Shown: positions 1-57,100, numbered from the stretch's first letter. The stretch: 64,000 nucleotides of DNA from a virus (IMGVR_UViG_3300047470_000212:1-64000), one strand, 5' to 3'. Notes: generated from the letters alone by a model not told the origin. Translations and numbers: made by a program.

Positions 1-997
1 GGACGTCCTTGTACGGGCTCGTCTGGGCCAGCAGGGCGAACTCCTTGCGGGCGTCCTTGTCCCACTCCGGCCGCCGCACGCGCTTCTTGATCCACTCGAA
101 CTCGTCCACGGCGTCGGCCTTGACCCGATCGAAGTCGGACTCCAGCCGGTGCACCTGCTTGTGGACCCAGGTGTAGAACTCGTCCGGGACGTGGTCGATC
201 CAGGACTCGATGCCCTGCCCGTTCGCCAGCGCGTCCCACACGGACAGGGTGCTGACGTTGGTCAGGATGCGGTGCAGCCGCACATACTCGTCGAACTTCC
301 ACTTCACCCGCAGATCGCTCTCCGGGAAGTGGACGACGAAGCCCTCCTCGTTCTGGCTCTGCGGCGCCGACAGCACATCGGCCAGCGAGGAGTAGTAGCC
401 GACCGGCGCGTTCCACGGTCCCGGCCAGTCGTACGGGTCCTTCGGGAGCGTCCGGCCGGTCTCGGTGTCGACCACCGCGATCAGGACCAGGTCGTCCATG
501 TCCTTGTAGTCGACGACGATGCGGTTCTGCGGGTAGACGATCTCGAAGAGGTACGTCAGGCCGAGGATCGGCTCGAAGGTCGGGTACCGGGTCTGGAGCA
601 CTTCCGTGGCATGGAGCGCCTGGGGGGAGGTGAAGGAGCCCCGCGTGGCGATGCGGAACTCCCCGGTATGAAGCCCGTAGAGGACACCCAGACTGCCGTC
701 CCACTTGATGTAGGTGTCGACCGGCTCGTTCATCAGCCGCGCCTGCTGGTCCGACGGGATCTGCGACCAGTTGAAGAACTTCTCGAAGGGCCGCGCGACG
801 ACCTTCTCGGTGACGGAGTTGATGATCAGGCCCCGGGTCTTCTTGGTGACCTCGTTCCACGCCCCGTCGTACTGCGCCTTGTTCGTGTAGTTGAAGATCA
901 CCCGGCTGCCGTCGGGGCTGGTCTGGGTGCGTACGTAGCCCTTGCCGATGTTGTCGATCAGGTCCTCGGGCTTGAAGACGTTGTCCAGGTGAACCAT
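1..997 (-). CDS. RNA ligase, T4 Rnl1 family (3' end runs off the window)
   Basis: Translated by hand from ATG at 997 (not in the ORF track): MVHLDNVF...TRGLII...ARPFEKFFNW...KWDGSLG...IATRGSF. These are Rnl1 motifs, including the adenylylated KxDGS motif. Confidence 0.85.
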   Translation of the reverse strand, partial: MVHLDNVFKPEDLIDNIGKGYVRTQTSPDGSRVIFNYTNKAQYDGAWNEVTKKTRGLIINSVTEKVVARPFEKFFNWSQIPSDQQARLMNEPVDTYIKWDGSLGVLYGLHTGEFRIATRGSFTSPQALHATEVLQTRYPTFEPILGLTYLFEIVYPQNRIVVDYKDMDDLVLIAVVDTETGRTLPKDPYDWPGPWNAPVGYYSSLADVLSAPQSQNEEGFVVHFPESDLRVKWKFDEYVRLHRILTNVSTLSVWDALANGQGIESWIDHVPDEFYTWVHKQVHRLESDFDRVKADAVDEFEWIKKRVRRPEWDKDARKEFALLAQTSPYKDV

Positions 998-1020
998 GTG
1001 CGCTCCTTGGTTGTGGTGGG

Positions 1021-1242
1021 TCAGACGCGGTGGTCGAGCGCGGTCACGACGCGGGCGGCGAACTCCTCGTAGAAGCCCTCCGGCATGTCGAGGCCGAACC
1101 ACTTCTTCGCCTCGTCGGCGACGATCTCGGTGGCCTGCTGGCGCTTGACTCCCTGGCGTCGCAGCCAGTCCTGTGCAGCGCTGCTCTTGGGGATGACCAG
1201 GTGGCCGAGGTTCAGCGTGGGGCGCTCGTCGATGGCAGTCAT
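1021..1242 (-). CDS. hypothetical protein
   Basis: 73 aa ORF with phage-like codon use, tightly packed in the operon. Confidence 0.7.
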   Translation of the reverse strand: MTAIDERPTLNLGHLVIPKSSAAQDWLRRQGVKRQQATEIVADEAKKWFGLDMPEGFYEEFAARVVTALDHRV

Positions 1243-1245
1243 GGG

Positions 1246-1677
1246 TCAGCCTTCCTGCTGAGTCTTCTTGGCCTTCTTCGCGGCCTTCTTGGCCGCCTTC
1301 TTCTTCGCTTCGGCCAGGGCGAGGAGGTCACGGGTGTTGAGGTTTTCCTCGACGTCCGTCAGGGCCTCGTCGAGCAGTTCGACGAACTGGAAGATCGCAC
1401 CCTTGAGGACTTCCGCCTTGTGGCGGGCGTTCTGGACGTCGGCCCGCAGCTTGTCGCGGTCCTTCTGGCTGCCGACCTGCCCGTAGACGCCGAAGTCGAG
1501 GGTCACGCTGCGGGAGCAGTCCTGGATCTGGAGAGTGGCGCCGAAGTCCAGGTAGTCGTCCGCGTCGTCCCCGTCGGTGATCTCCGCAAGCACTGCACCG
1601 AGGCTGTGGTGCCCAGGGTTGTTCAGGAACTCGCGGATGTAGAGGCGGCGCTCTTCCGGGGTGGCGGTGGTGCTCAT
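1246..1677 (-). CDS. hypothetical protein with Lys/Ala-rich C-terminal tail
   Basis: Start MSTTATPEE after AAGGAG RBS; ends KKKAAKKAAKKAKK. Confidence 0.7.
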   Translation of the reverse strand: MSTTATPEERRLYIREFLNNPGHHSLGAVLAEITDGDDADDYLDFGATLQIQDCSRSVTLDFGVYGQVGSQKDRDKLRADVQNARHKAEVLKGAIFQFVELLDEALTDVEENLNTRDLLALAEAKKKAAKKAAKKAKKTQQEG

Positions 1678-1807
1678 GCGGTGCTCCTTGCGTGTTGTCT
1701 TCGGGACCTTCGTGCGGCCCGTTCCGATAACCAAGAACCTATAACCAAGAAGCCGTAATCGCAAGTGGGTTCGTTAACTCGATTTACAAGCGCAGTTACG
1801 TGACGCA

Positions 1808-1848
1808 CGAAGACCCCCGCCGGGAGGGTGTCCCAGCAGGGGTCTTCG
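1808..1848 (-). terminator. stem-loop, putative intrinsic terminator
   Basis: CGAAGACCCC...GGGGTCTTCG inverted repeat just after the stop of 1864..2517. Confidence 0.55.
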
Positions 1849-2517: not shown

Positions 2518-3023
2518 CAGAACCAGTAGTCCTCGGACGGGTCGTCCAGGCCGTCGGTCTCGTAGGCCTTGGCGGACTCCTCGTACGTCTCCAGGGCCTC
2601 TTCCAGCGCCCGGCCCCAGGTCTGTCCCTGATCCTGCTCAACCTGAGCAATGGTGAGCAACGCCAGCGTCTCGTTGTCGACCTTGAGATGGCCCTCCTCG
2701 ACCAGGTCCTGCACCTCCGTCACGACGCTGTTGGTCGTCTCCAGGACGTCGTACGTGACGCCCTTGTAGGACAGCACGTAGCCGACCATGCAGGAGGGGC
2801 ACTTGTCCGCCGGGTTGAAGTAGGCGCACTGAGAGCGGCCCATGTCCGTCAGCGGGGCGTAGACGTAGTCCTCACCCTTCTCCTTCACCGCGCGGGCCAG
2901 CAGTTCCTTGGCCTCGTCCAGGGTGATCTCAACGGCGTCCGGCTTGGAGGTCTTCACCTCCGGGGTATGAAGCGCCTCGTCGAGGGTGGGCACGTGGTCG
3001 ACGATCTCGAAGATGTTGGTCAT
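2517..3023 (-). CDS. hypothetical protein
   Basis: 168 aa ORF, stop overlaps the next start. Confidence 0.7.
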   Translation of the reverse strand: MTNIFEIVDHVPTLDEALHTPEVKTSKPDAVEITLDEAKELLARAVKEKGEDYVYAPLTDMGRSQCAYFNPADKCPSCMVGYVLSYKGVTYDVLETTNSVVTEVQDLVEEGHLKVDNETLALLTIAQVEQDQGQTWGRALEEALETYEESAKAYETDGLDDPSEDYWF

Positions 3024-3150: not shown

Positions 3151-3402
3151 TCACAGTCCCAGCACCTCCTTCAGGCGCGTTGCGAACTCGTTGACGGTCT
3201 CCTCGCGGAGCCGGTCCTCGTGCATGTTGTAGTCGTCCTCGTCGTTCGCGGTGCGCTCCAGGAGCACTACGTCGCCGACTGAGATGGTCGTGGTGAACTC
3301 CCGGTAGCCGGTGAAGCCGCCGTCTCGCCATGTCTCAGTGGTGTTGACCTTGATCAGCGGCTCGGGGATCTCGATGGAGCCCCCGTAGGTATGAAGTGCC
3401 AT
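3151..3402 (-). CDS. hypothetical protein
   Basis: 83 aa ORF with GGAGG RBS; begins MALHTYGG. Confidence 0.65.
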   Translation of the reverse strand: MALHTYGGSIEIPEPLIKVNTTETWRDGGFTGYREFTTTISVGDVVLLERTANDEDDYNMHEDRLREETVNEFATRLKEVLGL

Positions 3403-4152: not shown

Positions 4153-4229
4153 CGGAGAGACACAACCTCTCGTAGGTGGGACAGGTGCCCGGCTGGGTCG
4201 CACCCCGGCCGGGCATCCGCATACCTGGA

Positions 4230-4499
4230 CTAGGTATGAAGTCGCCCGTACATCTCTCGCAGGTACCAGCGCATGTACTCCGTGGTGCCCACCATGCGCT
4301 CACAGCGAGCCAGCGTCTCGGGACGAATGCGGATGCGTGTCTCACGCGGTCCCGCCCTGAACCTCTCCATGAAGCCCAGGTAGTCCACCATCAGGGGGCT
4401 GCTCATCCGCCTTCTCCTCTTCCTCTTCTTTGAGACCGGCCGGGACTGCTCTCGGTATCGCGTGATGACCTTCTGCTCGAACGGGTTGAGTCCGCTCAA
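4230..4499 (-). CDS. basic hypothetical protein
   Basis: TTG start overlapping the upstream TGA; KKRKRRRR tract; ends GRLHT*. Confidence 0.55.
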   Translation of the reverse strand: MSGLNPFEQKVITRYREQSRPVSKKRKRRRRMSSPLMVDYLGFMERFRAGPRETRIRIRPETLARCERMVGTTEYMRWYLREMYGRLHT

Positions 4500-4849: not shown

Positions 4850-5166
4850 CACTGCTCTCCCACCTTCGCTTCGTTCCAGGCCTTCTCGGACACGCACACA
4901 TGGCCGGTGTCGTCGCCGTCGCGCAGGTTCAGCCGCCAGCACGCCGGGTCGGTCATCGGGATCGGGATGAAGCCCGTCAGCACCTGCGTGCACGACGTCG
5001 TCTTGCCGGACGGGGTGCACTGGGTGGTGTACATCGGCTGCATGTACGTCCAGTCGTTCTCCGGCACGTACTTCTTGCTGATGACCTCGCCGTGCTCGAT
5101 GCCTCCGCAGGCCGTCAGCAGTCCCGCGAGCGCAGCCGTAGCTGCGTAGGTATGAAGCCGCTTCAC
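4846..5166 (-). CDS. putative lipoprotein
   Basis: Signal peptide with lipobox AGLLTA-C. Confidence 0.65.
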   Translation of the reverse strand: MKRLHTYAATAALAGLLTACGGIEHGEVISKKYVPENDWTYMQPMYTTQCTPSGKTTSCTQVLTGFIPIPMTDPACWRLNLRDGDDTGHVCVSEKAWNEAKVGEQW

Positions 5167-13687: not shown

Positions 13688-13716
13688 ACCTTTCCGCAGG
13701 GGGAAAGGCTTGTCAA
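13688..13716 (-). promoter_or_regulatory. housekeeping-sigma promoter (imperfect -10)
   Basis: TTGACA-N17-AAAGGT. Confidence 0.55.
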
Positions 13717-13795
13717 GCCCTTTGAGCACATCGGTTTACAAGTCGTTATGAAGCCGTGACCGGCAGTCCGGGGGGCGGTGTGTTCCCATGGACGC

Positions 13796-40194: not shown

Positions 40195-40223
40195 CAGGGG
40201 CCCCCGTAGGTATGAAGTCGCAT
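40191..40223 (-). CDS. putative 10-aa leader ORF MRLHTYGGPC, coupled to recA
   Basis: AGGAG RBS before ATG; TGA overlaps the recA TTG (TTGA); contains CTT-CAT-ACC in frame. Confidence 0.5.
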   Translation of the reverse strand: MRLHTYGGPC

Positions 40224-40352: not shown

Positions 40353-42311
40353 TCAGGTGGTCACGAGGTCGACGACCTCACACGCCCCTGCGACGCACGC
40401 CAGTTCCTGGGAGCCCACGGTCTGGTCGTAGGTCTCGTAGAAAGCGAGGTCCGACCACTCAACGCGGTGCTCCTCAGTGGCCTGCGCCTCGTACTCCTCC
40501 TTCGTGATCTCCGTGTACGGCGCCTGCACGTACGTGTGATCGCTGTAGGGGAGGAAGGAGACACCACTGATCTCGTCCAGGTGCTCCCAGACCCACTCGC
40601 CGACCTCGGCCCACTCGTGCTCACGGACGCTGATGGTCACCGAAGGCTTGTGCTCACACCAGTGCCGCTGATAGGCCAGCCAGATCTCCAGGTGCTCGAT
40701 CGCGGAGACGTCCTCCCGCACCAGGGCCGTGTCGCTGGCCCGCTGGGGGAAGGTGAACACCCACGCGGAGGAGTTGTAGGCGTCCTCCTCGTGCGGGATC
40801 CCGGCGTCGATCATCACGAACGCGATGGGGTCCTTCTTGTCCACGCGCACACGCCGCTCGTAGAAGCGGGCGTGCTTGGTATGAAGCCCGGACTCGCAGT
40901 CGACCAACTGGGAGACGGTGCCGGAGGGCTTGACGCAGGTGATCGCATCCGAGGACGGGATACCGATGCGCTGGGCCTCGGTCTCGTTGGCGACGCGTGC
41001 CGTCAGGCGAAGGTCGGTCAGCGAGAGGGACGTCAGTCCCATGCCCAGGCTGCCATTGGTGAACTGGTTGCCGAAGACACCGGTGAGGCTGACGCCGAGG
41101 AGTCGCTCCTCCTCCGCGTTCTTGCGCCACTCCTCACGCAGGTACGGGTAGTCCGTCAGCGTGCTCTGCCAGGTGCCGAGGATGGCCGCCAGGCGTACCT
41201 TGCGCTCCAGGTCCTCGACGGTGTCCTCCGGCCGGACGACGACCTCGGACAAGTTGCAGAAACTGAACGGCCGCAAAATGATCTCGCTGCACGGGTTGGT
41301 CCCGTAGTCGGTGTCGGCCGACCGGTGCCCGTACTCAGCGGCCTGACGCTGGGCTGCACCACGGTGGAAGATGCCGCGCTCACCCGAGCCGGACGCGACG
41401 ATCGAGTCCCACTCCTGGTTGAAGTCCTCGTAGCGCATGCCGTCGTAGTAGACCGCACTGTTGTTGGCGAGGGCTCGGTAGGCGTGATCGACCCACCACT
41501 CCCCTGCCTTCGCCTGCGCCATCTCCTGGTCGTCCAGGTCGGACAGGGAGATCATCGCCGAGCGCCGGACGCCACCGACCACAACGACGCTGGCTATCTT
41601 GCACGCCAGGTCGTGGACCTCGATCGGACGGAACTGGCGGCCCTTGGCGCCGTGGAACAGCGCGGTGGTGAAGTTGAACAGGTCGTCGAGCGGACCCGGT
41701 CCGGAGGCTCGCCCTCCGAAGGTATGAAGACGGGCGCCCGCCGGTCGCACCTTGGACAGGTCCCACTGCCGTACTTCACCGGCCCACAGACCCTCCAGCA
41801 GCGAGCGGAAGGCCAGTCCCCAACCTTCCTTGCTGTCCTCGACCACGATCACGTCGGAGGCAGCCACCAGGGCGTCGGGGACGGCGGGGAGTTGGTCGGT
41901 GTACTTCTTCTCGACGCTGTAACCGACGCCAGTGCCGTTCATGAGGATGTAGAGGAGTTCGTCCAGGGCGCGGGCGTCCTGCAACGGCAGGTACGAACAG
42001 TTGAAGCCCGCGATATTCGAGCGGTCCAGGGCAGCACCGGCAGTCATCACCGCGCGCATGGACGGCATGACCTCGTGGGTTAGCACGGCCTGGCGGACGG
42101 CCTCGACGACCTCCGGCTCGGGGGTGTAGTCGTGCTTGTTCTTCAACTGGCCGATCATGAAGCCGACGTAGCGGTCCACGGTCTCGGTCCAGGTCTCGCG
42201 GCGATTCGCGTCCTCCAGCCAGCGGCTGTATCGGCTCTTCGCGATGAAGGAGCGGTAAGGGTCGGCGATGTCGCCGGAAGGGGTGAGCAGGGAGGTCACC
42301 AGGAAATCCAT
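40353..42311 (-). CDS. nrdJ: class II (adenosylcobalamin-dependent) ribonucleotide reductase
   Basis: MPSMRA, FNCSY, VVVGGVRRSA, GTNPCSEI, CNLSEV, TCVKPSGTVS, WCEHKPS, C-terminal CVAGAC. Confidence 0.92.
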   Translation of the reverse strand: MDFLVTSLLTPSGDIADPYRSFIAKSRYSRWLEDANRRETWTETVDRYVGFMIGQLKNKHDYTPEPEVVEAVRQAVLTHEVMPSMRAVMTAGAALDRSNIAGFNCSYLPLQDARALDELLYILMNGTGVGYSVEKKYTDQLPAVPDALVAASDVIVVEDSKEGWGLAFRSLLEGLWAGEVRQWDLSKVRPAGARLHTFGGRASGPGPLDDLFNFTTALFHGAKGRQFRPIEVHDLACKIASVVVVGGVRRSAMISLSDLDDQEMAQAKAGEWWVDHAYRALANNSAVYYDGMRYEDFNQEWDSIVASGSGERGIFHRGAAQRQAAEYGHRSADTDYGTNPCSEIILRPFSFCNLSEVVVRPEDTVEDLERKVRLAAILGTWQSTLTDYPYLREEWRKNAEEERLLGVSLTGVFGNQFTNGSLGMGLTSLSLTDLRLTARVANETEAQRIGIPSSDAITCVKPSGTVSQLVDCESGLHTKHARFYERRVRVDKKDPIAFVMIDAGIPHEEDAYNSSAWVFTFPQRASDTALVREDVSAIEHLEIWLAYQRHWCEHKPSVTISVREHEWAEVGEWVWEHLDEISGVSFLPYSDHTYVQAPYTEITKEEYEAQATEEHRVEWSDLAFYETYDQTVGSQELACVAGACEVVDLVTT

Positions 42312-43250: not shown

Positions 43251-45229
43251 TACTTAGCCTCACTCCAGCGGTCAACGATTTTCACGTCCGACGACAGCGG
43301 CACCTTGAGCAGTTTCTGGATGTCCTCGCCGAGCATGGCTTCCCGAACAAGGTCGGCGGCCTCTTCGGCGCGGTCCTCCGGAGCGAGGACGACGAGTTCG
43401 TCGTGCACCGAAAGGATCAGGCGGATTTCGTTCGGCAGGGAGTTGTTCAGCCGGATCATCGCCAACTTGATCAGGTCGGCTGCGCTTCCCTGGATCAGGC
43501 TGTTGACTGCCTGGCGCTCGGCGCCCATTCGCAGGCCGTTGTTCTGCGAGAGCATGAGCGGCAGGCGACGCTTGCGGCCGAGCAGCGTGCGGATGTACGG
43601 AGGTCGCCGCGACCGGCAGACCTGGATGACCCTTTCCTTGAAGGCGTAGATCTCCGGGAACAACTTCTGGTGCATCTCCATGAAGCGCTTGGCTTCCTTG
43701 ACGGAGATCTTCGCCATGCTGGCGACCTTGTCCGGGCCAGCGCCGTAGACCACGGCAAAGTTGATGCCCTTTGCGACCTGCCGGAAGTCGATACACGTAC
43801 GGTCGCCGCTCTTTACCCGCGCCATGAATTCCTGCGGGTCCACGCCCATAAGCGCGGCAGCGGTGGCCGAGTGAGGGTCGACGCCGTTGTGGAATCCCTT
43901 GTAGAGATCGCCTCGACCGATGAAGTGCGCGAGCACCACGAGTTCGATCTGCCCGTAGTCCGCGACGACCAGTTTGTATCCGGCCGGTGCGACGAACAGG
44001 CCACGGATTCGCTTACCGAGGTCCGTGTCCGGGCGCGGGATGTTCTGGAGGTTGGGTTCCCGGCAGGAGAATCGTCCGGTCACCGTTCCGTACTGGACGA
44101 AGTCGGCGTGGATCCTGCCGTCGAAGATGCGGCACGGCTTCTTCGGGTCGTCCTCGATACCGAGGTAGGACAGCGGGTAGTCGAGCAGCTTGCTGACTTC
44201 CGCGTACTCCAGCAGTTTCTTGACGACCGCGTTGTTCTCGTGCTTCTCCAGGCTGTCGGCGTCGGTGGAGTAGTCCTTCCACTCCAGCTCCTGCCCTGCC
44301 TCGCGCTTCTTCTTTCCGCCGTCGGTCGGCTTGGTGGGGCGCAGGCCCTGGCCGCCGTCCTTCTTGGGGGCGTACAGGACTGCGGCCTTCTGGGCCGGGG
44401 CGTTGAGGTTGAACTGCTGTCCGGCAGCGCGGTAGATGTCGGCCTCGATCTCGACCAGGCGGGCGCTCATGTCGCGCACCAGCTCCTGCATGGCCATCTG
44501 GTCGACAGGTGCTCCGGTGATGCCCATGTCGAGCAGCACGCCGAGGACGTCCTCTTCCAGGCGCCGGACGTTGATCAGGCCCTGGTCGTGGATGCGCTTC
44601 TGGAACTTTTTCCAGAGGAGCCAGGTGTACTTGGCGTCCATGTACGCGTAGTGCGCGACCTTGCCGAAGGGGTGGGCCTCGACGCACTTGCCGACGTTCT
44701 CGGTGTCGTAGTCGACCTTGTAGTACTTCTTGACGAGTTCCTTGAGGCCCTTCTGCTTGAGGTTTTCGTCGAGGAGCCACTGGAGGACGATCGTGTCGCT
44801 GTACTGCGGGGGTGCGATCTCGCCCCAGTACTTCGCCGTGGAGATGAGGTCGAAGGTCGCGTTGTGCGCGATCTTGATCTTGTCCTCGGCGAAGAACAGC
44901 GGCTTGAGGATGGAGAACACCTCGCTCGGGAGCATCTGCTCCGGCGGGGCGTCGTAGACAGCCGGGATGGCGTCGAACTTCCCGGTGATCTTGTTCTTCT
45001 TCTTCGTGGCCTTGCTCAGCAGGACGTCGCCGTTGGGGTGGCCGAACGGGATGGCCACAGCCATGCCGTCGGTGGCAAGGCTCATCCAGTTGGCGACGTT
45101 CTGCGTCGGGACGTTCCGGTTGGGGCCGAAGGTCTCGATGTCGAAGGAGAAGGCCGGGCGCTCCATGAAGCGCTCGACCACGGTATGAAGTCGGTCGGGG
45201 GTGAGGATGACGCTGTTCCTGATGGTCAC
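43250..45229 (-). CDS. DNA polymerase, family A (3'-5' exonuclease plus polymerase)
   Basis: FDIET, HNATFD, YAYMDA; TGRFSCREPNLQNIP, ADYGQIELVVLAH, AKGINFAVVYG, LSVHDEL. Confidence 0.95.
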   Translation of the reverse strand: MTIRNSVILTPDRLHTVVERFMERPAFSFDIETFGPNRNVPTQNVANWMSLATDGMAVAIPFGHPNGDVLLSKATKKKNKITGKFDAIPAVYDAPPEQMLPSEVFSILKPLFFAEDKIKIAHNATFDLISTAKYWGEIAPPQYSDTIVLQWLLDENLKQKGLKELVKKYYKVDYDTENVGKCVEAHPFGKVAHYAYMDAKYTWLLWKKFQKRIHDQGLINVRRLEEDVLGVLLDMGITGAPVDQMAMQELVRDMSARLVEIEADIYRAAGQQFNLNAPAQKAAVLYAPKKDGGQGLRPTKPTDGGKKKREAGQELEWKDYSTDADSLEKHENNAVVKKLLEYAEVSKLLDYPLSYLGIEDDPKKPCRIFDGRIHADFVQYGTVTGRFSCREPNLQNIPRPDTDLGKRIRGLFVAPAGYKLVVADYGQIELVVLAHFIGRGDLYKGFHNGVDPHSATAAALMGVDPQEFMARVKSGDRTCIDFRQVAKGINFAVVYGAGPDKVASMAKISVKEAKRFMEMHQKLFPEIYAFKERVIQVCRSRRPPYIRTLLGRKRRLPLMLSQNNGLRMGAERQAVNSLIQGSAADLIKLAMIRLNNSLPNEIRLILSVHDELVVLAPEDRAEEAADLVREAMLGEDIQKLLKVPLSSDVKIVDRWSEAK

Positions 45230-45312: not shown

Positions 45313-46122
45313 TCAGTCGTTCAGGATCTCGCGGGCGATCTGCTTGAGTTCGTTCCGCGTGTTGACGTGCAGGACGTCCTCGTCGTAGGCCTTGGAGTCG
45401 AACTCCTCCAGGTCCTCCTCGGTCAGCGGGTCGATGTCCCAGTCGTCGAGGAGGTCCCGCTCCTTGACCGGGGTGATGTAGTACGTGGTCTTGTTGTTCT
45501 TGCTCTGCTTGGAGACGCTGAAGTACAGGTCGTCCCGGTTGATCGGGGCGGTCTTCTTGTCCTTGGAGTAGTTCTTGAGGATGTCGGCGACCATCGGACC
45601 GAACTGCCACACCTTGATGACCGGGTCCTCGGGGTCGGTGAAGTCGACGACGTTGAACGCAATCTGCTGGGACGGCTTGTCACCCGCGTCATCGCACAGC
45701 GGGCAGCGGCTCTCCAGGCACGTCCAGGACCGCTTGCCCTTGCGCTCGATCCAGTGCTGGAGGAAGACCAGGAACGGCTCCTCGTCCAGGATCTTCACCA
45801 CCACGGCCTCGTTGGTGACCTTGAAGTTCTCCGGGAAGCCGGACGTGGCGGACTTGGTCTTCTCGTAGGAACCCCAGCCCTTGCCACCGACCTTCGGCGC
45901 AGGCTCGTTGTCCTCCTCGTCGTCCTCCTCGGAGGCGCGGCGCGAGCGGCGGGAGGCGGGGGCCTCCTCGGTATGAAGCGACTCGCGGCGCGAGCGGCGA
46001 GAGCCCCGGGCCGGGCGCTCGGTCTCCTCCTCGGCGTAGCCGTGCTCCTCCTGCTCGTCGTCGGCGGGGGTGTAGGCCTCGGTCGCGGCAGCGGTACGGC
46101 GGCGGGTCAGAGTGCGGGGCAT
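45313..46122 (-). CDS. putative single-stranded DNA-binding protein (gp32-like)
   Basis: QHW...WTC...CPLC Zn site, acidic termini, adjacent to the polymerase. Confidence 0.6.
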   Translation of the reverse strand: MPRTLTRRRTAAATEAYTPADDEQEEHGYAEEETERPARGSRRSRRESLHTEEAPASRRSRRASEEDDEEDNEPAPKVGGKGWGSYEKTKSATSGFPENFKVTNEAVVVKILDEEPFLVFLQHWIERKGKRSWTCLESRCPLCDDAGDKPSQQIAFNVVDFTDPEDPVIKVWQFGPMVADILKNYSKDKKTAPINRDDLYFSVSKQSKNNKTTYYITPVKERDLLDDWDIDPLTEEDLEEFDSKAYDEDVLHVNTRNELKQIAREILND

Positions 46123-46361: not shown

Positions 46362-46822
46362 TGCTCGGCCAGCCTCTTGAAGAGGTCGATGACGCGGGCG
46401 GTGAACTGGGTGCCCTTGATGGGCTTCTGGTGCGAGACCAGAACGCCCTCCTCGTGCGCGATGCGGACGATGCCCTCGACCTGCTCGCGGGTGTAGAGGC
46501 GGCGACGGCCGCGCGGGTCGTCGTCCTTGCCCGGGGACTGGAAGGTGGACTTGGGAATGACTCCCTCCCTCTCCCACTTGCGGATGGTCACCGGCTGACG
46601 GCTCAGTGCCTTGGCGAGTTGACCGAGGGTGAAGAACTCAGTCTCCACACCGCCCACCGTGTACTTCCGGGGCTTGTGGTCCCAGTCGGCCGCCGACGTG
46701 GCGGCCTTGGTATGAAGCCCGTTGCGGTTGTGGTGGCGGACGATCGGCTTGGTGGACCCGGGGTAGAAGGCTTCCCCGATCTCCGCGAAGTCCTGCTCGA
46801 TGCTGGCGAGTGCAGTGCTCAT
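46358..46822 (-). CDS. MerR-type HTH DNA-binding protein
   Basis: FTLGQLAKALSRQPVTIRKWEREGVIP...RRLYT. Confidence 0.75.
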   Translation of the reverse strand: MSTALASIEQDFAEIGEAFYPGSTKPIVRHHNRNGLHTKAATSAADWDHKPRKYTVGGVETEFFTLGQLAKALSRQPVTIRKWEREGVIPKSTFQSPGKDDDPRGRRRLYTREQVEGIVRIAHEEGVLVSHQKPIKGTQFTARVIDLFKRLAEQ

Positions 46823-47397: not shown

Positions 47398-47751
47398 TTA
47401 CGGCTTCTTCGGATCCATTCGAACCGTGCGCCGGGCCGCGTAGGCGCGGGCGTCGTCGTCCAACTGATCCATGCGGACTTCAGTCTCGGCCACGTCCTGG
47501 TAGACGGTGACCACGCGGTGGTCGGCCGGGTCGACGATGGCGACGATGTCCCCTCGTACGTGGCGCCACTGTCCGGGGACGCGGGCCGAGGGGTAGGTAT
47601 GAAGCGGCTTGTCGGCCGCGAGGAGAACATCCTCGCTGGTCCAGCCCTTGGCGGCGGCCTGCTTCTGCGCGTGGTAGGTCAGCCGGTACTCCGGCGACTC
47701 GGTGGCGGGAGCGGTCCAGGTGATGCCCAGAGCTTCGGCGATGGTGGCCAT
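47398..47751 (-). CDS. DUF4258-like (RelE/BECR-fold) putative ribonuclease
   Basis: YRLTYHAQKQ N-terminal motif and C-terminal VAIVD...RVVTVY; GAGGAG RBS; own promoter. Confidence 0.5.
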   Translation of the reverse strand: MATIAEALGITWTAPATESPEYRLTYHAQKQAAAKGWTSEDVLLAADKPLHTYPSARVPGQWRHVRGDIVAIVDPADHRVVTVYQDVAETEVRMDQLDDDARAYAARRTVRMDPKKP

Positions 47752-49698: not shown

Positions 49699-49985
49699 TG
49701 GGAGTACTGCCGATCGAACTGCCTGCTGGTGCGCGGGCGCCGGGCGAAGGGGACGCCGGGGGTGTAGTGCCCCTCCTGGATGTGGTCCGGGTTGGCGCAC
49801 ATCCGTCGCGTGCACGCGCGGTGCTTCTGGCTGCCGCCTCCGGTGATGAAGGACAGCAGGCTCTGGCCCTTGTAGGTGGGCCGGGTCGCGGTGGACTGGA
49901 AGATCAGGCAGTCGGTGTCCGGGTCCGGCTGGACGCGGTCCCAGAAGGCCTGTCCCAGGTGTTCGTAGCCATCAGGCGGAAGCAT
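49692..49985 (-). CDS. HNH-type (His-Me finger) nuclease-like protein
   Basis: FWDRV...DCLIF...HRAC...CANPDHI. Confidence 0.6.
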   Translation of the reverse strand: MLPPDGYEHLGQAFWDRVQPDPDTDCLIFQSTATRPTYKGQSLLSFITGGGSQKHRACTRRMCANPDHIQEGHYTPGVPFARRPRTSRQFDRQYSQC

Positions 49986-50031
49986 TGGCGGCCTCCGCCC
50001 AGGTATGAAGCCGGTTGTTCATGGGGTGCAT
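49972..50031 (-). CDS. putative 19-aa mini-ORF MHPMNNRLHTWAEAANASA
   Basis: ATG overlaps the primase TGA; runs over the HNH start; CTT-CAT-ACC in frame. Confidence 0.35.
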   Translation of the reverse strand: MHPMNNRLHTWAEAANASA

Positions 50032-50999
50032 CAGAACCTCGCTATGACGGATGAGTAGGCGTTGCGGACGGCGTTCTTGAGGGCGTCGGCCCCCATGTCG
50101 CCGGGGTCCTTGCAGGGGGTGCCGGAGTAGTCCAGGAACTTCAGGGACAGGCCTCGGCCGGTCCACTCCTCGCGCAGCCGCTTGCACGTCTCGGCTCCTG
50201 CGGTGTCGTTGTCGAGCGCGATGATCACGGAGTCGAAGTGGTCCCGGATCAGGGACATCTGGGCGTCGGAGACTCCGGCGCCGAAGGAGGCGAGACCGGC
50301 CTTGAAACCGCAGGCCCGGAGCCGGACGACGTCCAGAGGAGACTCAACCAGGATGGCCGTGTCGTCCTCGTAGGTATGAAGTCCGAAGAGGGTCTTCGAC
50401 TTGGCCATGCCCGGCGGCCGGTTGCGGAAATAGCGCTCGTTCTTCTCCTGCCAGCCCCACAGCATTCCCGTGTCGGGGTCGCGGACCGGGATGATCCACA
50501 TCTCCCGCTCGGTGTCCCACAGCACGCCGCAGGCTTCCGCGTCCTCCGGCATGAAGAACCGCTCGGCGCAGGGGGTCAGCGGCGGGGTGACGTACAGGGC
50601 CAGGCTGGCCTCGTTGATCTGCTTGGTCGTGTCGACCGTCTTGGGGTCAGCCTTCTTCGCCAGGAACTTCTTGACCCGCTCGATCCCGCCCCGCTGCCGG
50701 ACCCAGGCGACCGCGTCCCCGTACGGGAGGTCGAGCATGTCCTTTACGAGGACCACGAAAGGGCCCTGGTAGCGGCAGGAGAAGCAGTTGAAATACCCAG
50801 CGTCGTAGTTTATGGAAAAGGATGGGTGCTTGTCTTTCTTTCCGGTCCGCGCCTCATGCATCGGGCACGGCATGTGAATCTCGTCGCCGCTGACCTTGTA
50901 ATCCAGGCCAATCTCATCCAGGCAGGCGGTGACGTTGCCGGGAACCGGAGTTCCTACTGCGTCCCAGCCGCGCGCCTTAGAACGAACCCTGGTAGCCAT
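50031..50999 (-). CDS. DNA primase (Zn-finger plus TOPRIM)
   Basis: CPMH...PSFSIN...FNCFSC; ILVESPLD; IALDND; KDPGD. Confidence 0.9.
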   Translation of the reverse strand: MATRVRSKARGWDAVGTPVPGNVTACLDEIGLDYKVSGDEIHMPCPMHEARTGKKDKHPSFSINYDAGYFNCFSCRYQGPFVVLVKDMLDLPYGDAVAWVRQRGGIERVKKFLAKKADPKTVDTTKQINEASLALYVTPPLTPCAERFFMPEDAEACGVLWDTEREMWIIPVRDPDTGMLWGWQEKNERYFRNRPPGMAKSKTLFGLHTYEDDTAILVESPLDVVRLRACGFKAGLASFGAGVSDAQMSLIRDHFDSVIIALDNDTAGAETCKRLREEWTGRGLSLKFLDYSGTPCKDPGDMGADALKNAVRNAYSSVIARF

Positions 51000-52242
51000 C
51001 AGTGTTCTCCTCCTCCATGGCGAAAGGATCCTCGTTCAGTTCCTCGAACTTTCCCGTCTCCCAATCCCACTGGCAGTAGGTCTCCAGAGGCGGGCAGTTA
51101 CGGGCCAGGACGACCTTGATCTTGTTGATGTTCGAGTCATCCGTGGACTCGACACCGAGAATGACGTCGGAGTCCTGGGCGAAGGAGGACGAATATCCGA
51201 TGGAGTCGGAGGTAATGCCCTTCTTCTTGTTCATCTTCCATTCCAGGACCTGCGTGGAAATGACGATCGGGAGTTGCAGGTTCTTCGCCATGCGCTTGAA
51301 TCCTCGGGTGAGGTTGGTAAGCGCCTGGCTGGATCCCTGAGCCTCGCCGAGTTCGTCCTGCATCATGTAGATGCCGTCCACGAATACGATCGTCGGCCGA
51401 ATGGCATCGATCTTCGACTGCACACCGGTAAGCGTGGTCGCATTCATGGAGTCCGAGGAAAGGAAGAACGAGGGCATAGCCTCAAGTTCCCGAAGGGCCC
51501 TTTCGAGTTTGTCCCACTCGGTCTTCTTGAGCGTTCCGTTCCGCAGCCGGGCATGGGAAATCCCCGCGCGGATTGCGTCGAAGCGTTCCTCCTGCTCCTC
51601 GTTGCTCATCTCGAAGCCGATGAACAGCGGGCGCTCACCGTGCAGGTGGGCAGCCATGGCGGCCAGCAGAAGCAGCGTCGACTTACCAGCCTTCGGAGGG
51701 CCGACGAAGGTGACCAACTGCTCCTTCTGGAGGCCCTGGGTGGCCCTGTCGATCGTGTTGAAGCCGGTGGGGATACCCCGGAGCCCGTCGGGCAGGTCCT
51801 TGAGCGTGAGGTACCGCGCAAGGCGTTCCTGGCCCGTCTCCGTCAGGTCGGTGTCGCGGGCGTTGGGTACCGCCGAGGCGATGTTGGCCAGCGTGCGGGC
51901 CAACGCCTCCATCGCGGCGGTGGCGTTGCCCTCTTCGTGTGCGTCGACCGAGTCGGCCAGGCCCTGCTCCAGCAGGGCCAAAGTATGAAGTTCTCGCAGC
52001 CGGTCGGTCAGCACTTCCATGCTGTCCTCGACCTTGACGAACCGGTACGTGGGGAAGTCGGTCTTGATCGTGGTGAGGCTCGGGACCTCGCCGTAGTTCC
52101 CCTTGTGCCGCAGGATCGCCTTGAAGACGGACTTGTTGTCCGGGTCTCCGAAGAAGTCGGGGGTGATGCCCGCGTCCGCGACGACAGCCAGGTCCTTGTC
52201 CTGGATGACGCGGGACACGAGCAAGCGCTCGAAGTCCGCCAC
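50977..52242 (-). CDS. DnaB-like replicative helicase
   Basis: GIPTGF, GPPKAGKS, FEMS, VFVDGIY, STQ, QDSD. Confidence 0.9.
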   Translation of the reverse strand: MADFERLLVSRVIQDKDLAVVADAGITPDFFGDPDNKSVFKAILRHKGNYGEVPSLTTIKTDFPTYRFVKVEDSMEVLTDRLRELHTLALLEQGLADSVDAHEEGNATAAMEALARTLANIASAVPNARDTDLTETGQERLARYLTLKDLPDGLRGIPTGFNTIDRATQGLQKEQLVTFVGPPKAGKSTLLLLAAMAAHLHGERPLFIGFEMSNEEQEERFDAIRAGISHARLRNGTLKKTEWDKLERALRELEAMPSFFLSSDSMNATTLTGVQSKIDAIRPTIVFVDGIYMMQDELGEAQGSSQALTNLTRGFKRMAKNLQLPIVISTQVLEWKMNKKKGITSDSIGYSSSFAQDSDVILGVESTDDSNINKIKVVLARNCPPLETYCQWDWETGKFEELNEDPFAMEEENTDGYQGSF

Positions 52243-52685: not shown

Positions 52686-52930
52686 CAGGCTCGCTCCGCT
52701 TCGGCGCGGAGCCAGATATGAAGTCGTCCGTGCCGGAGTTCTGTGATCACACGGTGCTCGCGCACGCGGAATCCGAGGGCGGCAGCCTTGTAGACCGCGA
52801 GGAAGAGCAGCCGCTTGGCGGTCGCACGCTGCTCGGGGAACCGTCCGGTGATCGTCGCCGGGATCTCGTCCTTGTAGAGAACCGACAAGACCTCGTCCTC
52901 GAAGGGGAGGACCATCTGCTCATGCGGCAC
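52685..52930 (-). CDS. hypothetical protein
   Basis: GTG after GGAGGAG; coupled at both ends. Confidence 0.55.
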   Translation of the reverse strand: MPHEQMVLPFEDEVLSVLYKDEIPATITGRFPEQRATAKRLLFLAVYKAAALGFRVREHRVITELRHGRLHIWLRAEAERA

Positions 52931-53579
52931 GGCGATCTCCTCCGACGACGGTGATGTGGGTGAAGGCGCCCTGGATGAAGGAGCCCATCGAGGGGTTGTA
53001 TGTGTCCCCCCACTTGCTCGGCGGGACGTTGGAGGTGACGAGGGTCGGCCGGGCCTCGCGGTGTCGAAGGCGCAGCAGGTCGTCCAGCAGGCCTTCGGCG
53101 TAGCCGGACTTGGTCTTGTGCTCCTTGCCGACGTCGTCGAGGAGGAGGACGGGCGCCTTCTCGGCCGCGACGATCTTGTCCGTGATCTCCCACCAGCGGG
53201 CAACGGCCTCGGGCTCGTGCCGGTCCTGGAGACCCATCCGCTCGATGGACAACTTCACGTAGTCCGAGTAGGCCAGCCACGCCACGGGCAGGCGGCGGCC
53301 GAAGTAGACCTCCAGCAGCGTGGACGTGGCGAGCGTGGTCTTGCCTGTGCCGGGCGGCCCTACGACCAGCAGCCCCTTGCCGATGGTGCTCCAGTCGGCC
53401 GGGTACTCGTTCAGGGGGCGCTTGTCCGTGACGTAGTGGTCCCGGAGGTTGTCCACGAACTCCTGGCAGACGGCCTTGTGCGGCGAGTCCGCCAACGTAT
53501 GAAGACGCAGGTGCTTGTAGTGCGCCGGGATGCCGTACTCCTTGAGCCGCAAGGCGTGGACCCGGGGGTCAGTCGCCAT
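52920..53579 (-). CDS. DnaC/IstB-like AAA+ helicase loader
   Basis: GPPGTGKT, LLLDDVGKE, TLVTSN, GGDRR. Confidence 0.85.
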   Translation of the reverse strand: MATDPRVHALRLKEYGIPAHYKHLRLHTLADSPHKAVCQEFVDNLRDHYVTDKRPLNEYPADWSTIGKGLLVVGPPGTGKTTLATSTLLEVYFGRRLPVAWLAYSDYVKLSIERMGLQDRHEPEAVARWWEITDKIVAAEKAPVLLLDDVGKEHKTKSGYAEGLLDDLLRLRHREARPTLVTSNVPPSKWGDTYNPSMGSFIQGAFTHITVVGGDRRAA

Positions 53580-53702: not shown

Positions 53703-54770
53703 TCAGGACCAGTAGTCCTCGTTGAACCTGTTGTTCTCCACCTCGTCGACCTTGTCAGCCTTGCCCAGTCGCTGGGTCAGCAGCCCACGGGCGGCAAGGA
53801 AGTCCTTCCAGGCGACCACGTTGTCCGAGCGCTGCCAGGAGGTGGACCAGTAGGTGATGATCATCTGGCGTACCTCTTCGCGCCCAAGGCCCTGGGCCAT
53901 CCACCGGCCGAAGGTCCCAGTCAGGGCTCCGAGGTTGGTGGAGCCGGGGACCGGGTGACCTACTTCCCCGGCCCGGTGGTCGAAGAATTCCGCCAGTTCC
54001 TCCGAAGGCCTCTTGGAGCGCTTCTTAGGAGTTCGCCGGGCCGGAGGGGCCAGGTCGCCATCCGAAGCCGGGAGACGGGCGGCCAGGGACTCTCCTGGAT
54101 CACCGTCACCGATGGCCTGGGATACCACGTAGGCCGGATCGAGTTCCCGCTCGGCCTGCTCCTGCTCCAAGGCCTCCTGCTTCCGGGACTTCCTCTTGCC
54201 GCCAGGACCCCGGAGGGGGCGTACCGCATTCCAGCCCTTGGCTCCCGGCCTGGGAGTCTCCTCGGCATCGTAGAGATCCGACCGCGCCGACTGGCGCGGT
54301 GGAAGAGACGTAGTCTCTTCTATTTCTCTAGTAGTACTAGTTAGGTAGTTAGGGGTTGGGTGCACTCCAGTGCAGGGTGCAATATTTGCAGGGTCCTCTG
54401 GAGTTGTTATGTCACAACTACCTTCGTCGACCCCTGCATTATTTGCAGGTGTAGTTCTTGCACCCTTCTCGGGCTCCGGAATCCACTCTTCGATGGGGAG
54501 AATCCGGCGCACAGCGGACTTGTACCGCAGGGACTCCAGAGGCCTCTCCTCGTCGGAAACGGACTCGATGATGCGACGCTCCTCCAGGTCCCGCAGGACG
54601 TTGTAGGTCTGCCGCTCCTTGATGTTGGCCTTGCTGGCGATGGTTGGTACTGAAAGCCAGCACATCCGGAAGTCGTCATCCGCTGCGTCGGCCATGGCCA
54701 GCAGGACCAGTCGGGATGCAAGTCGGGTGTGCTTGCTCCGCATCACCTCGCCCATGATGATTACGCTCAC
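53703..54770 (-). CDS. replication initiator-like protein with N-terminal wHTH
   Basis: RLVLLAMADAADD...CWLSVPTIASKANIKERQTYNVLRDLEE is typical of phage replisome organisers; lies upstream of the DnaC-like gene. Confidence 0.75.
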   Translation of the reverse strand: MSVIIMGEVMRSKHTRLASRLVLLAMADAADDDFRMCWLSVPTIASKANIKERQTYNVLRDLEERRIIESVSDEERPLESLRYKSAVRRILPIEEWIPEPEKGARTTPANNAGVDEGSCDITTPEDPANIAPCTGVHPTPNYLTSTTREIEETTSLPPRQSARSDLYDAEETPRPGAKGWNAVRPLRGPGGKRKSRKQEALEQEQAERELDPAYVVSQAIGDGDPGESLAARLPASDGDLAPPARRTPKKRSKRPSEELAEFFDHRAGEVGHPVPGSTNLGALTGTFGRWMAQGLGREEVRQMIITYWSTSWQRSDNVVAWKDFLAARGLLTQRLGKADKVDEVENNRFNEDYWS

Positions 54771-54814
54771 TCGGCGACTCCGAGGAAGCGATAAGTATGA
54801 AGCGATAGCGTCAT
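54767..54814 (-). CDS. putative 15-aa leader ORF MTLSLHTYRFLGVAE, coupled to the initiator
   Basis: TGA overlaps the initiator GTG (GTGA); CTT-CAT-ACT in frame. Confidence 0.45.
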   Translation of the reverse strand: MTLSLHTYRFLGVAE

Positions 54815-54924: not shown

Positions 54925-54930
54925 CGTTAC

Positions 54931-56160
54931 TCACTCCGAGTCGAGTTCGAGGCCCTTCTCCTCGATCTCCGCCCGGGTCAACTGCACGACGGTCTGTCCG
55001 GCCGGGATGCGGCCACGGCCGCGACGGGTGTAGTTGCCCTCGTCGTCGACCAGGTAGGCGAACGTCTTGTTCTCGTCACGCGGGCGACCACGACGCCGAC
55101 GGGGAGAGGACTGCTCCTCCTGGTCACCCTCCGGCTCCTGGTCACCCTCCGGCTCCTCGGCCGCCTCCGGCGCCTTCTGCTTCTGCTCGCCGGTCTCCGG
55201 CAGCGTATGAAGCGCCTTGCGCAGCAGTTCGGTCAGCGGTCGCTCGCGCACGTCGGCCTGGTTGATGATCGCGTTGCGCTCGTCCTCCAGACGGAAGGAG
55301 TTGTAGGCACCCTCCAAAGCGGCGCGTATCAGGAGCAGGTCGATCTCGGCGTCCGGGACCGGCTTGTCGGTCTCCTTCTGCTGCGCCTTGTGCTGCGCGC
55401 GGGCGATCGTCTCCTGCAAGGACTCCTTCTCCTCCTCGACAGGCGCCTCTTCCTCGACCGGCTCGGCGGCCTTGCGACCACGACGGCGGGGCTCCGGCTT
55501 CGGCTCCTCCTCCGGCTTGTCCTCGGTCAGCGGCTCCTCTTCCGGCTCGGCCGTCTCCGGCTCGGCGCGACGGCCACGGCGACCGCGACGGCGGGGCTCC
55601 TCCGGCTCGGGCTCCGGCTCGGGCTCCGGCTCGGGCTCCGGCTCCGCCTCGGGCTCGGCGTGGGTCTCGGCAGCGAAGGAGATGTCGTCGAGTCCGGCCG
55701 TCAGGTCCTTGGCCGTGATCCCAGCGGCCTCGGCCGCGTCCAGGAGGAGTTCGGCCTCCTCGCTGCCCTCGGAACCCCACAGCAGGATCACGTGGGCGTC
55801 GCCCTGACTGTCGGCGTTCTTGAGGAGTTCGACGATCCCGGCGGTGACGTTGGCAGTCTTCACGACCTCCTCGGCGTCCTTGAGGATCTTGTCGACGGCC
55901 CGGCTCTTCTCGCCGTCGGTGACCGCGACGAACGGGATGTCGGCCCACTCGGACCACTCCAGGACGGTCTCCAGTCCGTCGGACAGGTGCTTCTTGGTGA
56001 TCGGGAGGATGAGCGTGATCTCGCGCTCGGAGGGCTCGGGGTAGCCGTCCTTGTCTTCCTCGCCGAGGCCCACGAAGTCGTTCAGGAGGGCCTTGACGTT
56101 GTCCAGGTCGGTGGCGGCGTCGCCAGCGAAGGCGAGTGCGATGGGCTGAGTGCTGCTCAA
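54931..56160 (-). CDS. acidic protein with EP repeat and RRRGRP (AT-hook-like) motifs
   Basis: EPEPEPEPEPEPEP; RRRRGRPR; RRGRGRIP; TTG after GGAG. Confidence 0.65.
   Translation of the reverse strand: MSSTQPIALAFAGDAATDLDNVKALLNDFVGLGEEDKDGYPEPSEREITLILPITKKHLSDGLETVLEWSEWADIPFVAVTDGEKSRAVDKILKDAEEVVKTANVTAGIVELLKNADSQGDAHVILLWGSEGSEEAELLLDAAEAAGITAKDLTAGLDDISFAAETHAEPEAEPEPEPEPEPEPEPEEPRRRGRRGRRAEPETAEPEEEPLTEDKPEEEPKPEPRRRGRKAAEPVEEEAPVEEEKESLQETIARAQHKAQQKETDKPVPDAEIDLLLIRAALEGAYNSFRLEDERNAIINQADVRERPLTELLRKALHTLPETGEQKQKAPEAAEEPEGDQEPEGDQEEQSSPRRRRGRPRDENKTFAYLVDDEGNYTRRGRGRIPAGQTVVQLTRAEIEEKGLELDSE
55601..55657. repeat. 12-bp tandem repeat (TCCGGCTCGGGC) encoding poly-EP
   Basis: Seen directly. 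Confidence 0.8.
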
Positions 56161-56281
56161 GTCTGCTCCCGATGTGGTGTGTTTGCCGCCCTTCCGGCGA
56201 CAGGAGAAGACGTTACCGGTTACGGCTTCTAAAAGCAAGAAACCCCCGCTTCGCAAGCGAGGGTTTCAAAGCGTTTGACAA

Positions 56282-56566
56282 CTAGGGCAGGTCAGGAACC
56301 CTGCGACCGGTGGCCGGATGCCTACGAGGAAGCCGCAGCGCCGGGGCCACCGAACCACCCCGGACAGGGATGTGCAGCAGGGCCACCACTCCGGCCGCAG
56401 CCGCAGCAGTCAGCCAGGGGACGGGAACACGCTGCGCCTCGTAGGCCAGGCCGACAACCACGAGGGGCTGGAGCCAGGCCGGGAGGGTGAACGGGAGCAC
56501 GACGACCAGCCACTCCCACGCGGTGAACGTGGCGAATGCGATCAGCAGGAGCCGGAACCAGTCCAT
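56282..56566 (-). CDS. small membrane protein
   Basis: Hydrophobic, next to the holin-like gene. Confidence 0.6.
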   Translation of the reverse strand: MDWFRLLLIAFATFTAWEWLVVVLPFTLPAWLQPLVVVGLAYEAQRVPVPWLTAAAAAGVVALLHIPVRGGSVAPALRLPRRHPATGRRVPDLP

Positions 56567-56569
56567 AGG

Positions 56570-57100
56570 TCAGACCGACCTCGGGCCGAGGGGAGACTGC
56601 GGGAGCGCCTGGGTGGTGATGGTCTCCTGGGCGACCAGGGCTGGCTTGACCGCACGCTGGAGCGCAGCGTGCAGGGCGACGGCGATCTGCTCGATGGCCT
56701 CGGGACTCAGGGTGGCGCCGCTGACCTGCGCCGGGGGCTCGACTGCCTCCGTCTCCTCGACGTACTTGGCCAAGGTGGCGGGCGATATATGAAGCCGGTT
56801 CTCGGTCTCGGTGATCAGGGCGTTCTGGAGCCAGCCGAACCACGCGTACTTCTTGAGCAGCGAGTGGTAGAAGGCGGTGCCGGTCACCCAGGCGAGGAAG
56901 GACGCGACGACGGCCGGGGCCCAGTAGAAGTGCTGGGGGTGGGCCTGGTAGACGGCCCAGAAGCCCGTGGCGACCGCGAGGACGGCATGCGCGGCACCCT
57001 TGACCGTGGCGTTGGTCGACGGCCGGGTGAACAGCGCGACGATGGCTGGCAGGGCCAGGCCGACGACGAGGGAAGCCGCGTCGGCGTAGTTGGTGAGCAT
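56570..57100 (-). CDS. putative holin
   Basis: About 3 N-terminal TM helices; located after the tail genes. Confidence 0.55.
   Translation of the reverse strand: MLTNYADAASLVVGLALPAIVALFTRPSTNATVKGAAHAVLAVATGFWAVYQAHPQHFYWAPAVVASFLAWVTGTAFYHSLLKKYAWFGWLQNALITETENRLHISPATLAKYVEETEAVEPPAQVSGATLSPEAIEQIAVALHAALQRAVKPALVAQETITTQALPQSPLGPRSV

Follow-up and report, generated by a model that had tools for sequence, protein, structure and literature searches.

An in-frame word and hairpin repeated through the genes of a temperate Streptomyces phage: a possible signal for the translating ribosome

Why does one short word recur dozens of times on a single strand of a phage genome, in unrelated genes and in one reading frame? 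The question is raised by the first 64 kb of IMGVR_UViG_3300047470_000212 (positions 1-64000, the whole stretch analysed, here called the window), a phage record of 107,080 bp with terminal repeats. Its GC content is 64.6%, and not the approximately 68% estimated in an earlier reading of the sequence (the original prediction). The word is TATGAAG, or CTTCATA on the coding strand, and an exact count finds it 33 times on the plus strand and not once on the minus strand of the window, at the very places where that reading had seen it. From the observations reported here, this word, together with a hairpin on its 3' side, appears to be a signal, not described before, that ribosomes read during translation.

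The word, its strand and its hairpin

In dinucleotide shuffles of the window, TATGAAG occurs 1.43 times on average and 4 times at most, in line with the earlier rough expectation of one copy per strand. Over the whole genome it is the most over-represented heptamer, with a strand ratio of 47:1. The full nonamer GGTATGAAG, which reads CTTCATACC on the coding strand, accounts for 23 of the 33 window copies. The logo of the word is [G>A]-CTT-CAT-A-[C>T]-[C]-[T/G], with variants tolerated at positions 8 and 9 only. The codon before it is GC-rich; the purine that had been noticed at this place, often supplied by a less-used codon, is seen in the logo as G>A, and a rare NNA codon precedes 21 of 128 copies.

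Genes were called by our own procedure, based on GC content at third codon positions (GC3), which places almost all of them on the minus strand. All 38 copies that lie inside called genes of the genome are on the sense strand and in the frame CTT-CAT-Axx, as had been claimed, and the copies that seem intergenic are likewise in frame, inside small open reading frames (ORFs) or genes missed by the caller. The encoded tripeptide Leu-His-Thr is seen 36 times against about 3.7 expected, with the spelling CTT CAT ACN in 33 of the 36. The SNF2 helicase does carry a Leu-His-Thr in ordinary codons (CTGCACACG at 49675-49683, minus strand), as the original prediction had remarked, and its impression that words often lie near gene termini is borne out by 13 of 48 copies in the first 20 codons and 9 in the last 20. 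The sole opposite-strand copy of the genome sits in a reverse-strand gene, in frame and with its own hairpin of the same layout.

The 40 nucleotides (nt) that follow the word have a mean folding energy of -14.4 kcal/mol, whereas 754 controls of the same phase average -10.1 kcal/mol (p=4e-23). The bases of the word are left unpaired, and its upstream side is without structure. The stem most often starts 2 nt past the nonamer, and at 51 of 64 positions this distance is 0-3 nt; the hairpin is GC-rich, with a median stem of 6 bp and a loop of 6 nt. Loop and stem are not conserved as sequence. Over 30 site alignments the consensus energies add up to -235, compared with -58 for controls, and there are 30 double-sided compensatory pairs where the controls have 5. 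Moreover, the hairpin is weaker where a relative lacks the word at that position (-11.3 vs -13.4, p=0.0024). A search of Rfam with the element gave no match.

Two exclusive forms, a locked frame and small leader ORFs

Among 42 related viral contigs, those with a PolA identity of 86-99% split into two word groups. The CAT-type contigs carry CTTCATACC (Leu-His-Thr) and no CTTAATA, and the AAT-type contigs lack CTTCATA and carry CTTAATACC (Leu-Asn-Thr) just as densely. On the sense strand, complete genomes hold 40-47 copies, and each genome also has one conserved reversed nonamer that changes form with the genome; in the relative G003 this opposite-strand copy is located in a different small ORF. 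Between the syntenic genomes G000 and G001, which share 78% nucleotide identity, about 26 same-position sites differ only by C or A (His or Asn). The 92 site positions of 11 genomes comprise 40 found in both forms, 37 that are CAT-only and 15 that are AAT-only, and at the form-specific sites the other form keeps the residue with a normal codon (CAC under CAT-only, AAC under AAT-only).

In a PolA tree the AAT-type contigs L018 and L020 adjoin a CAT-type clade, with other CAT-type lineages basal, which implies more than one switch of form, or recombination. Single CTTAATACC copies of the wrong form are found in CAT-type genomes, in contig 18 of G005 (136147 and 136168) and in G010 (8175). One of them lies 21 nt from a CAT-type copy, where AAT-type genomes carry a tandem pair. 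Recombination, or a change from one form to the other, seems to have left these copies behind as relics. The heptamer at 13747 (CTTCATAAC) is the one window copy that had to be removed from the set drawn up originally, since it is unchanged in AAT-type relatives and is placed between a terminator hairpin and a TTGACA promoter. The surrounding segment, 13700-13800, has a strong terminator-like hairpin followed by a CTTGACA promoter-like sequence, kept in both phage forms.

The phages that bear the element are a group of temperate Streptomyces phages. The DNA polymerase of the window phage is 51-53% identical to those of Streptomyces phage BRock and similar phages, its gene content includes a tyrosine integrase, a serine recombinase and a regulator of the HTH-DUF5753 type, and a relative with 95% PolA identity was found integrated in Streptomyces sp. 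NPDC002088 (contig 18); a temperate way of life in Streptomyces follows from these features. The 10.6-Mb chromosome of the same strain has about 24 copies of the word, on both strands, at background frequency and without excess structure (mean z about 0), so the element is specific to the phages and its use by the host was rejected. The word was not found in BRock or in relatives of about 50% PolA identity (L048, L049), nor in relatives about 60-75% identical at the terminase or another anchor gene, and the top k-mers of these word-less relatives are ordinary codon pairs. A literature search for the nonamers CTTCATACC and CTTAATACC turned up nothing relevant. In G000, the segment 87002-90553 (L065:3002-6553) holds a tyrosine integrase and, divergent from it, both a conserved small gene of the reverse strand and a serine recombinase of 694 amino acids; the C-terminus of the latter matches DUF4096 (IS4/5 transposase-like), and it is common to G000 and G001 only.

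None of the 92 distinct positions is convincingly in another frame; the out-of-frame exceptions either score low and are intergenic or N-terminal, or are chance heptamers without the YC tail. In the CAT form this lock is explained neither by codon cost nor by amino-acid tolerance or mutational distance. As to codon cost, ATA is used 10 times in confident genes and TCA is used too, and the word recruits rare NNA codons to the position just ahead of it (-1). Positions where the change would be cheap by BLOSUM are distributed about 200:134:220 across the three frames, and near-matches at a Hamming distance of 2 number 19:8:70, most of them in another frame.

The copies between genes lie in small ORFs whose start codon is 2-7 codons upstream of the word and whose stop overlaps the next start, most of them preceded by a ribosome-binding site, and these features are kept in relatives while the peptide diverges. 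Such mini-ORFs are found at 40191-40223, 49972-50031 and 54767-54814, and one lies beyond the window at 69.8 kb. Relatives of the second keep a TAGGAG ribosome-binding site and the word, with a different peptide. In the third, an ATG stands four codons ahead of the word in nine of nine genomes, and the ORF has 15 codons in eight of them and 13 in one, with a peptide that varies. At the first locus (40170-40223) the arrangement depends on the genome: the full-length protein downstream opens M-P-L-N/H-T, the word being codons 3-5, in the G005 prophage as well as in AAT-type phages, and in five CAT-type genomes there is a separate ORF of 10-11 codons, one base out of frame, with a stop that overlaps a TTG or GTG start. 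A 19-mer composed of A, CTTCATACC and TACGGGGGC opens two unrelated ORFs, at 3378-3396 and 40199-40217, and suggests that some copies spread as short start-of-gene modules.

How the element may be read

The reading that we favour, on an evenly balanced judgement, is that of a checkpoint in translation elongation; the pause itself, its regulatory use and its reader are what we infer from sequence. The unit would be a composite cis element of the mRNA, in which an unpaired, in-frame (G/A)-CUU-CAU-AYC (CUU-AAU-ACC in the sister phages) is separated by about 2 nt from a stem-loop. With CUU in the P site and CAU or AAU in the A site, the first pair of the stem would fall at nt +12, at the mRNA entrance of the ribosome, where structure is unwound. 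Such a placement would account for the frame and strand of the word, for its mini-ORFs and for the constant distance to the stem. Elongating ribosomes may dwell at the wobble-decoded Leu-His or Leu-Asn codon pair, and the dwell could act as a checkpoint that throttles or gates the translation of about 45 phage genes; copies that close a gene, or that occupy a leader mini-ORF, may also control translation of the coupled downstream gene. Given that each genome uses almost only one form, the fourth base of the word, which is the first base of the A-site codon, would be read in a lineage-specific manner, by a tRNA, by a protein that acts on paused ribosomes or through the tRNA supply of the host.

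The geometry recalls programmed frameshifting. The 3' stimulators of frameshifting are reported to lie 5-9 nt away, or 3 nt in the case of antizyme +1, and Ty1 has CUU in the P site of its +1 site (PMC5009743). In the phage element the spacer to the stem measures 5 nt from the end of the A-site codon, within the reported stimulator range, and 4 nt from the end of the heptamer, and from base-pairing reasoning the tRNA could possibly re-pair on UUC or UUA. Nevertheless, productive frameshifting is unlikely, with no alternative-frame product and the same GC3 phase on both sides of the word, and for the former reason a pause or checkpoint is favoured over recoding.

A bolder version, doubtful but conceivable, is that ribosomes halt at CUU-NAU against the hairpin until a factor specific to the phage type, a tRNA or an A-site-reading protein, releases them. 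The lytic genes would be gated in this way, and phages of one form could not switch the genes of the other on or off, which would add a sort of translational immunity to the temperate life cycle. Were it read by the ribosome, the element would stand as the first sequence-specific signal of elongation to extend over a whole phage genome: a codon triplet and hairpin set in dozens of essential genes, even at the cost of amino-acid changes, with a specificity that can be switched between sister lineages. It would represent a new layer of gene control, possibly a means of incompatibility between phages, and a compact tag for tuning translation in Streptomyces.

Several observations weigh against an elongation checkpoint. 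In the AAT form the frame is forced anyway, because one alternative frame would contain TAA and the other would require TTA, the bldA codon, which is not present in confident genes, and many sites are common to both forms. The heptamer is not of the type X_XXY_YYZ, so there is no -1 slippery pattern, and the +1 and -1 frames after the word resemble those of controls, with first-stop medians of 46.5 vs 50 (p=0.98) and 34.5 vs 60 (p=0.11), respectively. Either RNA or single-stranded DNA could be where the hairpin acts, since sites are separated from controls about equally by both sets of parameters (Cohen d of 1.20, 1.08, 1.10 and 0.96 over RNA or DNA parameters, with or without G-U pairs). No antisense copy of at least 7 nt was found elsewhere in the genome. 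A guide RNA as the reader was therefore set aside, the reversed copy being a full element in a reverse-strand gene. The primase co-varies with the type of word, which a signal of translation alone does not predict. Finally, a tRNA key would not be universal: the tRNA sets of the two forms, all of which include tRNA-Pro, Phe, Leu(CAA) and Asn, are alike except for one tRNA-His, and this tRNA is missing from the CAT-type G003. It is confined to one CAT-type clade, with copies in the CAT-type G000, G002, G004 and G005 prophage, and is not present in the AAT-type G001 and G007. In G000 this tRNA-His(GUG), of 86 nt and with a long variable arm, lies at 101737-101822 (L065:17737-17822, minus strand), outside the window.

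As for a protein reader, the most sharply form-differentiated genes are those at 99080-99533 of G000, where the minimum between-form distance exceeds the maximum within-form distance. They are two overlapping small genes of 90 and 64 amino acids (L065:15080-15533, minus strand) with no family match. Searches of Pfam and PHROGs with the small form-differentiated genes gave no useful family, and no Rae1- or RelE-like gene was recognised among them.

The main rival, a reading on single-stranded DNA in which the DnaG/T7-type primase of the phage starts primers (5'-GGUAUGAAG...) at the word and hairpin of the lagging-strand template, which is the coding strand, appears rather unlikely. A reversed copy would then prime the leading strand, and the zinc-binding domain would read C or A at position 4. 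In the co-variation mentioned above, 27 of 136 variable columns of the primase, clustered at residues 15-95, split perfectly between 13 CAT-type and 12 AAT-type loci, and in the PolA region it has by far the most form-fixed columns, in and after the zinc-binding domain, with an estimated 3% or so in the neighbouring genes when pooled (DnaB 1/114, PolA 2/256). The strand bias of 40-47:1 and the conserved reversed copy that changes form (G003 has three reversed heptamers, one of them a full nonamer) are also in keeping with priming, as are a predicted primer that would begin with purines and the comparable folding under DNA parameters. There is also a likeness to the G4-type signal of DnaG, in which a short word adjoins a hairpin; the G4 hairpin, however, lies 5' of the primer start site, and here it is 3' of the word. 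Besides, the primase is not a unique outlier: a genome-wide scan of 144 typed loci revealed that most genes differ between the forms (Fst-like values of 0.2-0.6, and 0.46 for the primase), and its candidacy as the unique reader was downgraded accordingly. Priming also provides no reason for the complete frame lock of the CAT form, nor for ribosome-binding sites and start codons ahead of intergenic copies; the even spacing of Okazaki-type sites was not found, the spacing being irregular (coefficient of variation 1.0-1.27, gaps of 10-18 kb), and a strict specificity of 7-9 nt would be unprecedented for this class of primase. Should the element be a primase signal, it would reveal a DnaG/T7-type enzyme with such a specificity, and the frame lock would be left as an unsolved constraint.

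Two further explanations place the reader on the transcript or on the duplex. In the first, the single-stranded word beside its hairpin would be recognised independently of the ribosome by an endoribonuclease or an RNA-binding protein of the phage, in the manner of boxA-boxB nut sites or of RegB/RNase E-type processing sites, and the stability, processing or antitermination of phage transcripts would be controlled in this way. The idea agrees with an element confined to the sense strand, with an unpaired word joined to a hairpin of structure only, with two exclusive forms that imply a specific reader, and with small unannotated genes that are strongly form-differentiated (for example 99080-99533 and 52685-52930). 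It seems nonetheless quite improbable, given that it leaves the frame lock and the mini-ORFs unexplained, that about 45 cleavage or antitermination sites within essential ORFs would be odd, and that no candidate protein family and no Rfam match were found. A stoperator-like site, at which a prophage repressor would bind double-stranded DNA and block transcription in the lysogen, the two forms being immunity groups, is hardly credible. The phage is temperate, with two integrases, the HTH-DUF5753 regulator and the relative integrated in Streptomyces sp. NPDC002088, and cluster A mycobacteriophages do have many orientation-locked sites with variants among relatives, similar to the many single-orientation sites and the variation of form described here. 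On the other hand, a compensatory flanking hairpin has no role in the binding of double-stranded DNA, the frame lock and mini-ORFs are again unexplained, with all sites translated in one frame, and the HTH-DUF5753 gene is among the least form-differentiated (Fst-like 0.04). Recognition by the ribosome is the only one of these readings that explains the frame lock, the mini-ORFs and the hairpin at nt +12, and is in this sense partly supported. The original prediction had proposed recognition on the translating ribosome, with which these three observations agree; it had noticed neither the hairpin nor the AAT form of the word. The co-variation of the primase is open to a reading at the DNA level.

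Distribution of the elements and comparison with known systems

The genes that bear the element (Table 1) belong to replication, recombination and nucleotide metabolism, with some structural and lysis genes, and not to the early block. Elements are nearly absent between 5 and 23 kb, where the host-type promoter sequence TTGACA-N17-TAGAGT has 7 matches against 1.3 expected; the region of 24-43 kb has 1 match. Examples of this promoter-like sequence on the minus strand are found at 20401-20373, 6028-6000 and 47827-47798.

Table 1. Elements and related features in the window. Each element comprises the nonamer and its hairpin; coordinates are those of the window, and gene limits are from our own calls.
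Feature	Position	Strand	Context
Element (nonamer 665-673 and hairpin)	634..673	-	Codon 109 of gene 1-997
Element	2946..2972	-	Codon 18 of gene 2517-3023
Element	3363..3396	-	Codons 3-5 of gene 3151-3402 (MALHTYGG)
Element	4207..4241	-	Final three codons of gene 4230-4499 (LHT, then stop)
Element	5132..5157	-	Codons 4-6 of gene 4846-5166
Non-member, chance CTTCATAAC	13747..13753	-	Conserved terminator/promoter spacer; same in AAT-type phages
Element	23286..23334	-	In a conserved small membrane-type protein missed by the caller; LHT in CAT-type, LNT in AAT-type relatives
Element, variant CTTCATATG	24815..24854	-	Codon 94 of gene 23595-25133
Element	25576..25605	-	Codon 97 of gene 25162-25893
Element	25649..25695	-	Codon 67 of gene 25162-25893
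Element seen in this genome only, weak hairpin	27019..27053	-	Relatives have CTG CAC ACC at the same place
Element (CTTCATATC)	27321..27362	-	Codon 38 of gene 26688-27473
Element	28908..28944	-	Codon 18 of gene 28603-28995
Element	29941..29965	-	Codon 174 of gene 29612-30484
Element	31213..31237	-	13 codons ahead of the stop of gene 31196-32452
Element	34557..34586	-	12 codons ahead of the stop of gene 34548-35150
Element (CTTCATACT)	38551..38583	-	17 codons ahead of the stop of gene 38530-38874
Element	38999..39027	-	End of gene 39007-40194; TGATG stop/start overlap with the next gene inside the hairpin loop
Mini-ORF MRLHTYGGPC (40191-40223) and element	40170..40223	-	AGGAG ribosome-binding site; stop overlaps the TTG start of the next gene
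Element	40847..40886	-	Codon 476 of gene 40353-42311
Element	41683..41729	-	Codon 195 of gene 40353-42311
Element	45152..45190	-	Codon 14 of DNA polymerase I gene 43250-45229
Element	45952..45978	-	Codon 49 of gene 45313-46122
Element	46688..46717	-	Codon 36 of gene 46358-46822; hairpin kept in 11 genomes
Element	47562..47604	-	Codon 50 of gene 47398-47751
Mini-ORF MHPMNNRLHTWAEAANASA and element	49972..50031	-	Start (ATG) overlaps the stop of the primase gene; stop overlaps the ATG that follows
DnaG/T7-type primase	50031..50873	-	CHC2 zinc finger at residues 3-65, Toprim at 172-259
Element	50336..50381	-	Codon 165 of the primase gene
Element (CTTCATACT)	51960..51990	-	Codon 85 of DnaB-type helicase gene 50977-52242
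Element (CTTCATATC)	52691..52723	-	Codon 70 of gene 52685-52930
Element (CTTCATACG)	53463..53504	-	Codon 26 of AAA/IstB-type loader gene 52920-53579
Mini-ORF of 15 codons MTLSLHTYRFLGVAE (54767-54814) and element	54764..54814	-	Stop overlaps the GTG of the next gene
Element (CTTCATACG)	55165..55212	-	Codon 317 of gene 54931-56160
Element (CTTCATATA)	56749..56794	-	Codon 103 of gene 56570-57100

Among systems that act on DNA or on the free transcript, the stoperators of cluster A phages (the gp71 sites of L5) are also dozens of asymmetric, transcription-oriented sites in a temperate actinophage, with variants between relatives, but they are double-stranded DNA sites, mostly intergenic, with no frame rule and no hairpin. 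G4-type and ssi signals and T7 primase sites likewise combine a short sequence with an adjacent hairpin on one of the DNA strands, and in T7-type primases the zinc-binding domain is the specificity element of the family and co-varies with the word in the phages described here; known primase sites are of 3-5 nt, with no frame rule, no mini-ORFs and an apparently opposite order of hairpin and word. The nut site of lambda (boxA and boxB) also places a single-stranded word before a hairpin on the transcript. Its few untranslated sites lie near promoters and its boxB loop is sequence-specific, in contrast with about 45 translated copies whose loops and stems are not conserved in sequence.

Systems tied to translation offer other likenesses. 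The start-associated sequences of cluster K mycobacteriophages are a conserved short word repeated at many actinophage genes, located upstream of start codons and including the ribosome-binding site, unlike the present word, which stands inside ORFs at any depth. Rae1 of B. subtilis and the A-site nucleases of the RelE family depend on the reading frame for recognition, but the known members read one codon and the phage word has nine bases. In the bldA/TTA regulon of Streptomyces, the same host genus, a set of genes carries a rare sense codon through which translation can be gated; the phage signal differs in being a fixed nonamer with a hairpin and not one codon, in having no dedicated tRNA common to all carriers, and in not being used by the host chromosome. 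Programmed frameshift and pause cassettes (Ty1 CUU_AGG_C, prfB CUU_UGA_C, dnaX) resemble the element in their in-frame heptamer that opens with a shift-prone P-site CUU (PMC5009743), in a slow wobble-decoded A-site codon, and in a short spacer followed by a 3' hairpin at the mRNA entrance. In contrast to those cassettes, the phage element has a heptamer that is not X_XXY_YYZ and no alternative-frame product; it is present in about 45 copies per genome, in unrelated genes, and takes two mutually exclusive forms in sister phages.

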